Shown here in pieces: positions 780 to 58,699 of a stretch of 64,000 nucleotides of DNA. The position numbers were made by a program, and so were the translations under genes. This DNA is from Eledone cirrhosa (taxonomy: Eukaryota). Each line of letters opens with the position of its first letter. Within the stretch, counting starts at the first letter, position 1. The notes under the pieces are model-generated. The model worked only from the letters and a program-made list of their open reading frames with translations. It was not told the origin of the DNA and ran no database searches. The stretch is taken from contig OZ024743.1 in NCBI GenBank assembly GCA_964016885.1, positions 261,330,001 to 261,394,000 of the forward strand. Reading direction: 5' to 3'.

Positions 780-862
780 CATCTATATTAAAACTTTTAT
801 ACTCTGCAATGTATTGAGTACCTTACTTACTGTGGTTACCTCCGATTCAACCCGGAATAACG

Positions 863-926
863 TATATATATATATATATATATATATATATATATATATA
901 TATATATATATACATATATATACATA
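863..926. repeat. (TA)n microsatellite
   Basis: Direct reading. Confidence 0.95.
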
Positions 927-929
927 ACT

Positions 930-3900
930 TTGAAAGGTTTCGGCCAGTATTGGCCCAGGCCATGTCTAACTTAATAGCACCACCTGGCGAAGTCTTACAA
1001 ATCAGTGTTTGGGCACCATGGCCCACTCGAGCAGAGAGTTATTGTTCACGGAGGCATATCCGGGTGTAGGAGGCTTATCCAGGATTTCTTGAAGGAATTT
1101 ATCCAACGAACTCTTGAACTTGATGGGGTCTGTCTCTGCTTTGATGTGTTTTGGTGTAATGTTAAAGAGTGCAGGGCCAATTGAGGTGAAATAATTGTGC
1201 CGTATTGTTATGTGATGCGAGTGGGATTTTTGTCACGGGCAGATAGCACGGGGCCCAAGCCTTGGTTGTACACTAAAGGTGATGCCAACATCATTTGGGC
1301 TAAGCTGATGGAATATTTTCCACATCATACAAGTAATGTATCGCTCACGGCGACGTTGAAGAGAATAAAGCCTGTCATGCCAACTATCTTTTTTGTAATT
1401 GACCTTTGGGGTGCTTCAACTTCCATGATACTTTGTTTCGTGTGGGGTGACCACAGTGGACAACAGTATTCAAGGTGGGGTCGGGCAAAAGTGGAGAAGA
1501 GAAGGACAACAGTGTGAATATCTCTCAACTGGAAAGTTCTGAGAATCCAGGAACACATTCTGTGGACCATATCAACTTTGCTGTTTATATGAGTGGCCCA
1601 GCTTATTTTGTTGTCCACAATTACTCCCAGGTGTCTGATGTTATTGGAAGCCACTAGAGTTTCACCCGAAGGAAGAGAGTATGGTAGTTTCAGGGCATCC
1701 TTTTTTCCAAAGTGGATTAGTTCAAATTTATCCTCATTCAAATTTAGCACTCACTGTAAATGAGGTTGGTGTTAGGAAGGGCATCCAGCTGTAGAAATCA
1801 AGCCAGATCAGTTCCTGTATGAGCAAGGCATGGTCAGCCGACCAGACACTGCACACAACAGGACAACCCGTCTAACCCATGCTCGTGTGGAAGAACGGAC
1901 GTAAAACGGTGATGATGATGATTCAACAGCATATTATTCATCTCTGCCCATTGGATAACAACCAGTAGGTCTGACTGAAGACAAGTCCGGTCACCCACCT
2001 CATTGATGACCCTTTGGAGCTTGGAATCATCTGCGAAGATTCTGATGTTACTGTGGTTGATGATGTCAGTAATGTCATTAATGTAGATGATGAAACGAAG
2101 TGGGCCCAACACAGTGCCGTGTGGGATGTCACTGCTGACTTTGGCAGGGCTTGATTTTACTCCTTCGACTACAACATGCTGGGTTCTGCCTGTCAGGAAA
2201 CATTTGATCCACTGTAGTAACCTTCCAGAGACACCAACATTGGATAGTTTTTTTCAGTAGAATCTTATGATCAACCCTGTCGAAGGCCTTGCTGAAATCA
2301 AAGTAGATGACATCAGTGTTGGAGCCCTCTCCCAAGGCTCTCAAAACATCGTCAAAGTGATGCAGGAGCTGCGTTAGGCAGTCCCTTCCATTACGGAACC
2401 CGTGTTGGTTGGAGTTCAGCAGGCCGTTGCTTTCAAGAAAGTGAGTTATTCATGATCTCACCACCCTCTCAAATACCTTGATAATATGAGAGGTGAGTGA
2501 GATCGGACAGTAGTTCACTGCAAGGGACTTATTTCCCTTTTTGAAGACTGGGACAGAAAGTTTTCAGGAATATAGCCAGTGTCCATGAGTTGCTCCACAG
2601 ATTAGCAAGAGGAGTTGCAAGTTGGTGTCGACACACCTTCAGGACACAAGCAGGGAACCTGTCGGTGCCTACTGCGGAATTGTGTTTAATTTCGTTTATT
2701 GCTGCTAAGACATCAGGGGCGCCAAACGTTATGTCTGATATAGTGTGTTGGGGATTAACATCATTGATACGGCCCCGATCGGCCATATCAGGGTTGCTGA
2801 AAACAGAGCAGTATTGTTTCTGCAGTATCTCGCCCATGATTTTGGCATTGTCCTGGAGTGTGCCATTTTCATCAACTAGAGGGCCAACAGTGGAGACGGT
2901 GACCTTGTGTTTTTTAGCGAATGAGAAGAACACTTTGGGGTTGAGTTTGATTTTCTCAATAGCCCACCTCTCTTCAGCTATTCTCTGGTTATTGATGATG
3001 GTCATCATGCATTGCTGGAGGTTATATTTTTTTGACTCAAGCAGGGTGATAGCCATTGAATGTGTGTGCTGCTGTTGGTAGTATTTTAGTGTGTTAATTT
3101 TTTTGTTTGTTCTTTTTATTTTTCTGATAATTGTTTTTCTGTTTTGGGGGATACTGCACTTGGTTTTGTTCACAGGTTTTGATGGGGTGTGTTTTGTACA
3201 TATATTTGTGACAGTGTCTACAAAGATCTGCCAAGATGGTAGAAGTGTGTGCATGTAAAAGACCATTCAACATGTGATAGTTCGTTCATAATTGCATCCC
3301 AGTTGGCATTGTAGAGATCCATGTTATCAAATGGGTGGGCTGGAGAGAGGACCCTGGGATTAGATTTCGGCTGGTGGAATCTCAGGTTACAAAGAACCAT
3401 GTCATGGTCTGAGAGAAGGGTTTTTTCCACTGTAATATTATGTATAGTGTTAGTGTGGTTACTAAACACTAGATGTAGAATGTTCTTCTGATGTGTCATT
3501 GGTGCAAGGACAAGTTGGGACAAGAAAAACTCATTCATGAAGTCAAGAAGTGACTCGATAGCCTCTTTGTCAGTGGTTGAGGCTGTGGAGCCTGGTTTCA
3601 AACTACATGTAGACCAATCAACACAGGGTAGATTAAAGTCTCCCATCAAAAGTATGTTGCTAGAATGGCACTGTTTAATAAAGCATTTAATACTGTTGAG
3701 GCATTCTTTGAAACAGATTATGGGTGTTTGTAGCGGCCTATAGAGCCCAACTAATGTCAGGTCATTGGCTTTATTGTGCACAGTGACTGATTCACAGTAT
3801 CCATTAGAGAATGTTGTGTTGCCATCTGCTGTAAAGGAATCATGCAGGAAAATGGCAGTTCCACCCTTCCTTCTGCCAACACGATCCGCATGGATGGTTG

Positions 3901-5400
3901 TAAAATTTCTCACTCTTACTTCAGCCTCCAAGTGGGAGTTGTCAAGGTGGGTCTCAGTAAGAATGAAGAAGGGAATGTGAAATGGATGGTTACCAACACA
4001 ATCCTCAATGAATTGGATCTTCCATTTCTGTGCATTGATGGATGGGCTGATACCTTGTATATTGAGTAAGAATGTGGAGGGTAGTGTGGTGGCTGGTTTT
4101 GACTGTTGCAGGGGGCTTGTTTTGTGATTGTATGTTAGTGACAGCAAGGTTGGTGTTGGGTGATGGCTAAAATGTTTTTCTCTATCTCTTTTGCCAGGTT
4201 CATGGCTAAAAAAGATTTTTTTTTTGTTCAGGGAACAGTTTTTGATTGGATTTGTGGTTACAACATTGGATAGGGTTGCAGTTCCCTCTTTTGTTGTTGT
4301 TGTTGTATTTGTTGTAATTGTGTCTTTGTGAAAAGACTGGAGCAGCATTACTTTTGTTGTTGTAATCGTATCTTTGTGAGAAGACTGGAGCAGCATTACT
4401 GCAGCAGGGGGTGGCTTTATTGTGGTTTGTGGGTTGGCATGAAGCCCCTTTTCTGTTCGTGCGTTGTGTCCTAGGAAGATGAGTGAAGGGACAGTCAGTA
4501 GCAGACATAGCCTCTCACGTTGGGAATGTTGGCAGATTTTGGGACTGCGACCTATGCGTGCGGGCAGCGTGCTTTGGTGATGGCTGGCAGTGATAGTGTA
4601 CCTAGTACCCGGTAAATGGGTAAATATACAGTCGCTACGTGTGCATAGCCTCTGACGTAGTGAGTAGCGGCATATTTGGGGGTTTCTAGTATGTGTAGTG
4701 GGTGGTGCATACAGCTCCATAGAACTTTTTTTTTTATAGTTCTTTTGACTATGGCATGATTGTGGTGGTGATGTGGGGGAAGAAAGCATTGGTGGTGATG
4801 ATGATGATGACAACTGTGGTGGGAGAGAGAGCAGTGGTCCATTACTAGCAGTTGGTGTGGCAGGAGATGGTGATGGGGATAGTGATGACTGAGTGATACT
4901 GTCATTTAGTTCATAGTTCAGCGATTATGCTTGAATTCAGTAGAGGTTGCTCCTGGCTTTCTGGCTGTTGTTGTTGTATTTGTCCATTAGAGCAAATATG
5001 TCGAAGTTTTTCAAAATGGTTTTGAATTAATTTGAAAGAGACTTCGACATGTTTTAGTTTTTGTGTATCTGCTTAGCAGATCTCGTCGTAAATGTTTGAG
5101 CTGTTTTTTAAGCAATTCCATTCAGACAAAACACGTTAATGTTTGATGTTTGTGACAGAGAAAGCCATGTGTTTATTAAGAGGTCAATTTCATTTTCAGA
5201 CCAATTTCGTCCGTTGTGGGCTTGCTGGTCAGTAGTCATTTTTTTATTTTTTTATTATTATTATCCTTGTGTGCATTTTAAGATATTTGTTATTTGATAC
5301 ATGAGTGAGACTTTGGTTATTTGAAAAAATTAAAGAATCGCGTATATATATATATATTTTCTCTCTTATGGATGTGAGTTTGGTTGTTTGAGGATGTTAA
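930..5400 (-). mobile_element. Degenerate near-full-length CR1/L2-group LINE (CCCH fingers, APE, RT)
   Basis: APE motifs LTETHL, LMGDFN, SDH (3218-4070). RT motifs DVIYFDFSKAFDRVDH, LGPL, FADD, RPHLEYCCPLWSP (1325-3266). Multiple frameshifts. Confidence 0.9.
1742..1920 (+). mobile_element. RTE 3'-UTR fragment with (GAT)n tail inserted in the CR1 RT
   Basis: ttggtgttaggaagggcatccagc...ggacgtaaaacggtgatgatgatg matches the RTE tails at 24606-24780 and 56300-56445. attcaa flanks both sides (1736-1741, 1921-1926). Confidence 0.8.
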
Positions 5401-57771: not shown

Positions 57772-58190
57772 ATGGCGGCGATGAATTTGTTTTGCGAGGT
57801 TTTTTTATATGAAATCGTGTATCGAAACAAATATTGTTATACTTGGGGAGGGTCATATTGTCGTAATAATATTGCCAGAAATAATAACAGAACACACAAA
57901 TGGCGTAGATATACAATACAACAGGAGGAACATAATAATACCACTGATGATGTTGCAGATGTGCAACGAAAGAACTTTGTTAGACTATATATATGTGTTT
58001 ATATCTATATTATATCTGTATTTTTGACCGTTGGTCAGTCAATAGTAAACATTGAGGACCGAATGAATTAATTGTGGAGATATAAAAGATACAGAAGGGA
58101 AACCCAACCAGACAGTGAGTGTATTCTGTTATTATTTCTGGCAATATTATTACAACAATATGACCCTCCCCAAGTATAACAATATATATA
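57772..58190 (+). mobile_element. Small element with ~65-bp inverted ends and an internal variant hammerhead (57942-57979)
   Basis: 57831-57897 is approximately the reverse complement of 58120-58185. ca-CTGATGA-t-gttgca gatg tgcaac-GAAA-gaac-TT-tg. Confidence 0.72.
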
Positions 58191-58494
58191 TACAGTAATG
58201 GTTGCATTCTTTAAGGCTATGTCAATATTTATTTATAAAACTGATCTATATTATATTTTATCTGATGAAAGCACACCATAATTTAACTTGGTGTCCTTGA
58301 AATATGTATAATGAAATAAATATGGTTTTATAAATATAGTTTCCAGTTGTTAATATCGTATTTTTACTCCAAATATTTGTTGAGTGCTTTATATCAGTTA
58401 TAAAAATATTTGCTTGTTGTATCCCAACAATTTAAATAGAACTTTTACATATATATATATATATATATATATATATATATATATATATATATTC

Positions 58495-58629
58495 ATTCAT
58501 TTATTATGGCTATTGGTGAGCTTCGTTACTCTAAAGTTTCACCTGCGCTCTCACTGGATCACCAGTCTTGTTTGGTGTGTACGCAGGTAAGACTCTAGAG
58601 TAACAAGCCTTAGCCATAATAAATGAATA
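58495..58629. repeat. Imperfect fold-back of an HHR-bearing pLTR-like sequence
   Basis: attcatttattatggcta...tagccataataaatgaat. The minus strand reads CTGGTGA...GAAAC tttaga GTA (58527-58565). Confidence 0.75.
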
Positions 58630-58699
58630 TTTAAACTCTACTTCGGTATTGAGTTTTCATTATTACGTCCGTCAATAATTCACGCACTCTAAGGTCTTG

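Follow-up and report, generated by a model that had tools for sequence, protein, structure and literature searches.

A hairpin present in two copies ahead of the ORF of Hydra-clade Penelope-like elements that probably positions the start of reverse transcription

We analyzed a 64,000-nt stretch of Eledone cirrhosa DNA (the window) and found a small, bulged hairpin that sits 3' of a hammerhead, within terminal repeats belonging to the Hydra clade of Penelope-like retroelements (PLEs). The hairpin occurs twice in the element leader, and copies of the element end just before one of the two. Judged from the sequence, each hairpin likely positions the reverse transcription (RT) start on the element RNA.

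A preliminary description of the window had reported six RCUC/GAGY stems, all of which are present, position and strand included. That description recognized the outer helix but overlooked the remainder of each stem; the motif consists of a near-invariant RCUC/GAGY helix, a 2-nt 3' bulge (usually UU or UC), and an inner helix. Its list was also incomplete, lacking the stems at 50934-50956, 51025-51050, 51679-51657 (minus strand), 52379-52415, and 58366-58385. Read from the 5' side, the elements carry a hammerhead, then stem A, an interval of 55 to 83 nt, a second stem (B), and the ORF; the stems and element copies of the window are as follows.

801..819, plus strand: stem A of family F1; inverted F1 copies end ~5 nt before the stem
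9635..9730, minus strand: inverted 5' copy of F5, tail-less (approximate bounds)
9932..10000, plus strand: stem A of F5, with a 59-nt inner region; predicted pairing in context weak (0.03)
46805..46905, minus strand: hammerhead copy of fam13 with a tail-less end, stopping in (TA)n ~4 nt before the position of stem A in its relatives
50934..50956, plus strand: stem A of a read-through F6 copy
51025..51050, plus strand: stem B of F6; most tailed copies of this family stop 6 nt before it
51528..51550, plus strand: stem A of F6
51657..51679, minus strand: stem A of an inverted F6 fragment
52379..52415, plus strand: stem of F7, ~50 nt before a (TA)n end
53180..53375, minus strand: inverted tail-less copy of F2 with a hammerhead at 53277-53228, ending 13 nt before the stem position
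53598..53644, plus strand: stem A of F2; the copy ends ~75 nt later in (TA)n
53787..53832, minus strand: stem A of F3; the window copy stops 3-4 nt before B
58366..58385, plus strand: stem A of fam5
58495..58628, plus strand: imperfect fold-back of F4, 134 nt long, which contains a decayed hammerhead-like motif; inverted end 6 nt before the stem
58635..58654, plus strand: stem of F4, capped by a UUCG loop

The window held 13 stem matches compared with a mean of 1.6 (maximum 9) in 100 block-wise dinucleotide shuffles, and a blind 1-Mb sample of the same genome held 103 compared with 21, 18, 11, and 22 in four shuffles. The match at 35208-35282 lies inside an unrelated ORF and is probably due to chance. 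Predicted pairing in context exceeded 0.5 for 3 of 12 window stems and 24 of 32 stems from metagenome relatives. Rfam covariance models gave no match in the window at gathering score, a search of limited sensitivity because it missed the hammerheads too; at E<=1, six loci returned only sub-threshold microRNA/scaRNA matches, all in one of them. The motif was not found in Rfam or in the literature searched. SECIS, the histone stem-loop, and the iron-responsive element were rejected as identities, having no common features by eye and no Rfam match.

The terminal A-U to G-C exchange, cited earlier as compensatory, proved modest: this position is paired in 13 of 19 families (p=0.005), and of the 37 metagenome stems, 33 have an invariant G-C there. 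It is the weakest evidence; the inner helix, which differs in sequence between families, shows the stronger covariation. In a pairing-blind analysis, its pairs were formed in 33, 26, and 19 of the 37 metagenome stems, whereas column shuffles predict 18.8, 10.6, and 9.2, and slid registers showed no enrichment. Stem A alone keeps this pairing (15/16, 12/16, and 8/16), which also holds in part in 19 families of the octopus genome itself. The CUC/GAG core shows no covariation because it was imposed by the search and is near-invariant.

Each of the six stems had been described as following a hammerhead. A canonical CUGANGA...GAAA core precedes three of them in the window (801, 9932, and 53598), and the other three cores are variant or decayed. 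The hammerhead before the 53832 stem has the core CAGAAGA, fixed in the F3 family (29/29 matches); that before the 51528 stem is decayed in the window copy, with CUGANGA in its relatives; and that before the 58635 stem is likewise decayed, the family having mostly CUGGUGA. The hammerheads of the window are listed below.

735..778, plus strand: type I hammerhead of F1, canonical core, predicted to cut after 773
9791..9868, plus strand: hammerhead of F5, an old diverged copy with a long stem II
51251..51393, plus strand: hammerhead of F6, decayed, with a very long stem II
53487..53536, plus strand: hammerhead of F2, canonical core
53864..53904, minus strand: hammerhead of F3, with a non-canonical, family-fixed core
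58262..58310, plus strand: hammerhead of fam5, canonical core

The predicted cut lies 27 (801), 63 (9932), 134 (51528), 61 (53598), 31 (53832), and 32 nt (58635) from the stem, in agreement with the 25-140 nt reported. With a strict hammerhead descriptor, only two motifs were found in the window and 6 of 103 stems could be linked to one; because it passed over motifs that are obvious on inspection, we used tests for the core and for the 3' half instead. These placed a hammerhead upstream of 16/102 and 26/93 stems, respectively, and both figures are too low, since the majority of copies are truncated at the 5' side or have a long stem II. No hammerhead was seen upstream of the F7 stem in 14 copies viewed. 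The view that fam0, the most abundant family, is without a hammerhead was dropped; it has the 3' half. The stems are enriched 3' of hammerheads and covary, and these two results support the earlier proposal of a second conserved RNA element common to hammerhead elements.

The families were called unrelated, which is correct for their DNA sequence; wherever an ORF could be linked, they belong to one PLE clade. We assigned them to the Hydra clade from protein motifs, target, and layout, the ORF being tied to F1 and F3 among the window families. F1 is young as a family; its ORFs are intact and its tailed end is sharp. Elsewhere it is joined to a single 713-aa ORF with RT plus a GIY-YIG endonuclease at its C terminus, in which YRDD and VY...YIG are present. 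Pfam gave only a weak GIY-YIG match to this ORF, below cut-off (E 0.0049), and no RT match; the best fold matches of its predicted structure (pLDDT 89) were telomerase RTs, with a TM of about 0.35. The F1 protein has RWR and DKT; among 44 aligned proteins, RWK and RWR occur in 35 and 8, and DKT and DKS in 36 and 8. The Hydra-clade features CxCX5C in the linker and CxxC and CxH in the endonuclease, without CCHH, were all found. So were a terminal repeat with hammerhead (some cores decayed or variant), an inverted 5' copy, and a one-sided tail. Insertion into (TA)n is indicated by (TA)4 after 58 of 93 stems, compared with 12.5% of random sites.

The leaders of relatives carry the stems in pairs. 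Two stems 55-83 nt apart precede the ORF in 16 of 27 independent metagenome relatives, one stem in 5, and none in 6, some of these leaders being truncated or interrupted. The sense leaders of these relatives hold 40 stems in 5,183 nt compared with none antisense, and their ORFs hold 2 in 54,868 nt. Stem B lies 58-94 nt before the first conserved protein motif, both stems falling between the hammerhead and the start codon. F3 read-through copies elsewhere have stem B 90 nt past A, followed by a Hydra-type ORF. F1 has no canonical B, and an unbulged GCAC/GUGC hairpin occupies that place; its window copy ends ~44 nt past stem A, in (TA)n at 863.

Copy ends stand in a fixed register to these stems, as would be expected of an RT recognition site. 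In 13 families of the blind sample and window we placed 69 tail-less ends: 57 fall within 0-10 nt before A, with a median of 5, and 12 lie farther upstream. Tailed ends precede B in 4 of 4 cases in the same material and in 52 of 55 over all own loci, a set that includes loci picked with tail-containing queries; B is directly visible in 3 of the 15 own families of this analysis. At metagenome loci, 10 of 15 ends lie 0-8 nt before a stem and 5 do not fit. A/T microhomology with (TA)n blurs all these ends by 2-3 nt. Among inverted pairs, 22 of the 24 classifiable combine one A end with one tailed end (p=1.8e-5 compared with independent pairing); 9 of 33 pairs have an unclassified end.

The preliminary description had left the choice among an RT, endonuclease, or 3'-processing signal. 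In our results each element has the signal two times, and it lies immediately 3' of either copy end; this restricts the choice and favors an RT-start signal over a poly(A)-type signal. The latter was rejected: AAUAAA is not conserved, and copy ends join (TA)n. An AATAAA-like run was said to precede the stems; the exact hexamer does so in only two of six cases, and conservation is confined to A/U near positions -6 and -5, in a generally A/U-rich flank. The DNA of a copy end does not include the stem that marks it, as would fit a signal carried by the template.

If the RT start is positioned at each stem, the PLE tail would be the A-to-B interval, and hairpins that set the start of copying would explain why insertions have a tail on one side. 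The RT/GIY-YIG protein would nick both strands of (TA)n and bind the stems on the template RNA; each nicked end may then pair with A/U-rich bases 4-6 nt 5' of a stem, so that one cDNA would be primed at A and one at B. Joining of the two cDNAs would yield an inverted structure with the A-to-B interval on one side only. More speculatively, two protomers might hold the two stems (a predicted homodimer fold of residues 1-490 gave no support for pairing of two chains), and a hammerhead-cut, circularized, or tandem transcript could furnish a template longer than unit length. We offer tentatively a two-site integration unlike LINE priming, in which two identical hairpins of one transcript, each docking an RT active site, would prime both ends of the (TA)n double-strand break at once, the twin cis-signals encoding termini, inversion, and one-sided tail.

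Alternatively, the GIY-YIG endonuclease might read the hairpins as DNA and, starting from a cDNA or double-stranded intermediate of greater length, trim it ~5 nt ahead of each stem, giving the two ends. We regard this as unlikely, although it too predicts one A end and one B end, and the inner helix offers too small a number of G-U and A-C cases to settle on which strand the signal is read. In the view of Craig et al. (PMC8557442), the tail most likely arises when the endonuclease resolves an intermediate, and the Drosophila Penelope endonuclease required the tail for recognition, as summarized in PMC11167929. However, the cDNA must first run beyond the stem, and a PLE protein in vitro makes tail-bounding starts directly, by internal initiation (PMC11167929).

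Still less probable is that the stems cause RNA 3' ends to form slightly upstream of them, through cleavage by a host nuclease or through termination, with ordinary end-primed RT copying the processed RNAs. The A/U-rich bases before the stems would suit such a role, and end positions alone look the same for a cut RNA and an internal start, yet if the A and B ends came from different RNA molecules, they would be expected to combine at random, contrary to the mixed pairs above, and poly(A) was absent at the copy ends viewed, in addition to the lack of a conserved AAUAAA. Equally improbable is a role in translation, packaging, or ribozyme control, with ends clustering where an A/U-rich single strand beside a helix anneals (TA)n most easily: the position in the leader and the A/U-rich flanks would agree with it, but other A/U-rich stretches of the same repeats are seldom used as ends, the offset is similar in 13 families and other animals, and the base-specific core and bulge suggest protein recognition.

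Positioning of the RT start by the twin stems would address how PLEs choose their start sites and why the tail is one-sided. In the parts of these papers available, Craig et al. call for an in vitro PLE system (PMC8557442), and Frangieh et al. describe internal starts without a defined signal (PMC11167929). If correct in its two-site form, our reading would define an RT-docking RNA motif for the first time among the mobile elements most closely related to telomerase. More generally, it would make the start site of a telomerase-related RT programmable and allow PLE ends, which in repeat libraries are often trimmed so that the stems are lost, to be annotated by a simple rule. With a 20-nt motif, a fixed offset, young copies encoding intact protein, and a known (TA)n target, it is directly testable.

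Stringent LINE RTs (UnaL2/ZfL2, R2) recognize 3' stem-loops, and telomerase has a template-boundary helix. By general analogy of role, a small RT-bound RNA helix would fix the copying register in all three. In LINEs and telomerase the signal either is located 5' of the point where copying begins or brings copying to a halt, whereas the Hydra stem lies 3' of the proposed start; unlike them, it is left out of its end and present twice.

The available text on the Hydra clade of C-terminal EN+ PLEs (PMC8557442) agrees with our elements in protein motifs, C-terminal GIY-YIG, (TA)n target, terminal-repeat hammerhead, 5' copies in inverted orientation, and a tail at one of the ends, and describes no such hairpin. 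By eye, the published Hydra-2_Amil, Hydra-1_Ajap, and Hydra-2_Ajap consensus sequences (coral and sea cucumber) hold the same stems. The tail is given there as 30-40 bp and attributed to endonuclease resolution (Craig et al. 2021), whereas here it measures about 55-140 nt and is bounded by the twin stems. Non-LTR retrozymes share type I hammerheads in PLE-derived non-coding repeats, and no such stem appears in the portions available of their descriptions (PMC7229834; 10.64898/2026.07.22.740005); they form tandem arrays, whereas the Hydra-type copies here are dispersed, mostly 5'-truncated PLE ends. In Poseidon PAc of Anolis carolinensis, the limits of the tail are set by two internal RT start sites, both 3' of the hammerhead (Frangieh et al. 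2024, PMC11167929). The same source, in the part available, names no repeated motif at these starts, and reports that both DNA strands are cut and extended and that RNA 3' of the start is required. Poseidon PAc, which belongs to another PLE clade, starts inside the ORF in an AC-rich stem-loop, whereas the Hydra stems lie in the leader before the ORF.

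All six RCUC/GAGY stems of the preliminary description (801-819, 9932-10000, 51528-51550, 53598-53644, 53832-53787 on the minus strand, and 58635-58654) were present in the window. In full, the motif opens with RCUC and closes with GAGY; between them lie an inner helix starting with YR, a loop that varies, and, on the 3' side just before GAGY, a bulge of two pyrimidines. The window held 13 matches to this pattern (12 distinct 3' arms); across 100 block shuffles the average was 1.6 and the highest count 9. A blind 1-Mb sample, made up of 10-kb pieces taken at 100 regular intervals from the same 3.0-Gb animal genome, held 103, compared with 21, 18, 11, and 22 in four shuffles. 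Grouped by flanks, 343 stems from this genome formed 61 clusters, 25 of them with at least two members; some singletons are chance matches. Rfam gave no matches in the window at the gathering score, hammerheads included.

A protein-alignment scan of metagenomes yielded 77 loci, 39 of which included the start of the ORF together with 130 nt or more of preceding sequence; 27 were left once similar leaders were removed. Two stems were found in 16 of these leaders, one in 5, and none in 6. The stem nearer the hammerhead (A) and that nearer the ORF (B) were spaced 55-83 nt apart, and stem A was 69-98 nt downstream of the hammerhead core (11 cases). The 5,183 nt of leader contained 40 stems in sense orientation and none in antisense; the ORFs, totalling 54,868 nt, contained 2. 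By eye, in the accessible part of the published Hydra consensus file (PMC8557442 supplement), a stem follows the hammerhead on its 3' side in both Hydra-2_Amil and Hydra-2_Ajap, and Hydra-1_Ajap has two at its start; in Hydra-1_Amil, Hydra-1_Obim, and Hydra-1_Crog a stem was absent or not clearly seen. The 3' arm had six matches in the accessible 584,000 characters of that supplement, four of them within the small Hydra file.

Covariation candidates were chosen from the metagenome leaders by their CUC and GAG anchors, irrespective of pairing. Among 37 candidates with AC next, inner pairs 1-3 were Watson-Crick in 33, 26, and 19, compared with 18.8, 10.6, and 9.2 in column shuffles, which ignore phylogeny (p = 0.0002, 0.0002, and 0.0006); the fourth pair reached 16 of 37 versus 11.2 (p = 0.05), and slid registers of the inner helix showed no enrichment in this comparison. 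All four pair types occur at the second inner pair. A parallel count of 59, taking in the other 22 blind matches without AC, gave the same trend. Taken alone, stem A had inner pairs 1-3 in 15, 12, and 8 of 16 cases, and stem B in 16 (nearly invariant), 10, and 9 of 16. The covariation proposed earlier for the terminal pair was modestly supported, this pair forming in 13 of 19 own-genome families compared with 7.9 in shuffles that likewise ignore phylogeny; inner pairs 1-4 formed in 15, 10 (not significant), 13, and 10 families. A predicted pairing probability above 0.5 was reached by three of the 12 stems in the window and by 24 of the 32 from metagenomes; the weak folding of stems alone is consistent with decay or with the need of a protein.

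The proposed position of the stems 3' of hammerheads also held as an enrichment: of 93 paired stems, 26 had a hammerhead 3' half 15-140 nt upstream and 3 had one downstream; an upstream half was present for 65 of the 1,348 look-alikes that do not pair and for 5.6% of random sites. Of 102 stems in the blind 1-Mb sample, 16 had a CUGANGA...GAAA core upstream and 4 had one downstream; the frequency among random windows was 2.4%. Opposite-strand halves upstream of 19 of 93 stems are expected from inverted copies. Among the six window hammerheads described, three have canonical cores, one is a family-fixed variant, and two are decayed in the window copy. Those at 9791-9868, 51251-51393, and 53487-53536, all missed by Rfam, have a palindromic stem III and a very long stem II (~60, 120, and 30 nt between core halves). 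The predicted hammerhead at 53904-53864 (minus strand) has the non-canonical core CAGAAGA in 29 of 29 matches of its young, ORF-bearing family, and the non-canonical core CUGGUGA predominates in the predicted hammerhead of the 58635 family, whose window copy is at 58572-58602. An extra hammerhead-like motif at 9022-8990 (minus strand), with (TA)n at its end, adjoins an inverted fragment like the 801 family. CCAAT (645-649) and a TATA-like box (699-706), 30-90 nt upstream of the 801-family hammerhead, form a candidate internal promoter.

Seven window stems each lie in a repeat for which first-look candidates numbered between 533 and 2,505, and (TA)4 follows 58 of 93 stems versus 12.5% at random. 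ORF links among the window families concern the 801 family and the 53832 family, which also leads into a Hydra-type ORF. The carrier ORF has the features by which the accessible text of PMC8557442 characterises the Hydra clade of Penelope-like elements (PLEs). Pfam gave only a sub-threshold GIY-YIG match, and the predicted fold of the carrier protein was closest to telomerase RTs, at a low TM-score. Judged by sequence, the carrier is a Hydra-clade PLE of the ordinary kind. The short fold-back family fam0 (L211-L308), very abundant at 22 stem copies per Mb, carries a hammerhead 3' half, stem A, and a 50-nt tail; no ORF link was found for it. The 52379 family lies upstream of the 58635 family on the same strand in 12 of 12 loci with both (L097, L098, L101, L108, L114, L117, L185-L187, L192, L193, and L198); they are possibly two ends of one non-coding element in tandem insertion. 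The window also contains a tandem array at 11881-13206 (60-nt unit, 22 copies, 93% identity), broken LINE-type ORFs with endonuclease/RT fragments (2529-4924 and 24913-31555, minus strand; 14929-15801, 54842-55789, and 58791-63567), and ORF fragments that we take by their motifs to resemble Helitron Rep (16569-18098), a DNA transposase (34919-36175, minus strand), and a CRE-type RT (49191-50665, minus strand).

Copies end either before stem A (tail-less) or past it (tailed), the tail probably being the A-to-B interval.

Copies in the window by type of end
801: tailed copy
53598: tailed copy
53832, minus strand: tailed copy
58366: tailed copy
53180-53375, minus strand: tail-less copy
46905, minus strand: tail-less copy
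50934 and 51025: read-through copy with both stems

In the blind sample and window, 13 of the 15 families tested had (TA)n copy ends on the 5' side of stem A, 69 in all; 57 of these were within 10 nt (median 5) and 12 further away. Ends past stem A formed a sharp cluster family by family, and where B is known (three families) they fell 0-10 nt before it in 4 of 4 blind cases and in 52 of 55 ends over all loci, a partly query-selected set. An exception is the 801 family, whose tailed end is sharp and whose B position holds an unbulged GCAC/GUGC hairpin retained in sister subfamilies. A single read-through copy of the repeat family fam17 (L220:2750-2850) carries a stem resembling B, its core helix including a U-G pair, ~4 nt past the family's tailed end. 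In the metagenomes, 25 self-matches yielded 15 usable ends once 10 that reached a contig end or extended into the ORF were discarded; 10 of the 15 lie 0-8 nt before a stem. At positions -6 and -5 before the stems, the base is A or U in nearly every case.

The DNA of an end lacks the stem marking it; the simplest view is therefore that the stem works on the template, 3' of the start. Trimming of a DNA intermediate by an endonuclease at the stems would also place ends there, and we regard it as unlikely. Of 33 inverted pairs in the blind sample and window, 22 joined a tail-less to a tailed end, one was tail-less on both sides, one was tailed on both, and nine had an unclassified end; the 22 mixed pairs among 24 classifiable ones depart from independent pairing (p = 1.8e-5). 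Passive clustering of ends at stems with a leader function is improbable, and equally so are stems that serve as RNA 3' processing signals. We consider it likely, from these patterns, that the Hydra-clade protein docks on stems A and B. Each nicked (TA)n end would anneal to the A/U bases 4-6 nt upstream of a stem and prime a cDNA, and joining of the two cDNAs would give an inversion with a tail on one side.

Stem-loops are bound by RTs in LINEs and in telomerase RNA. According to the accessible text of PMC11167929, a Poseidon PLE protein cleaves the two DNA strands and extends each of them, two internal start sites bound the tail, and RNA further 3' is required. The one-sided tail and inverted copies of PLEs are likewise already known (PMC8557442, accessible text). 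The accessible portions of PMC11167929, PMC8557442, PMC4209133, PMC7229834, and preprint 10.64898/2026.07.22.740005 yielded no description of the twin-stem motif, and searches of the openly available literature found no paired motif placed at a constant distance from the two PLE ends. The twin stems are real and, we infer, would represent a variant of an RT-recognition signal, new by this literature search.
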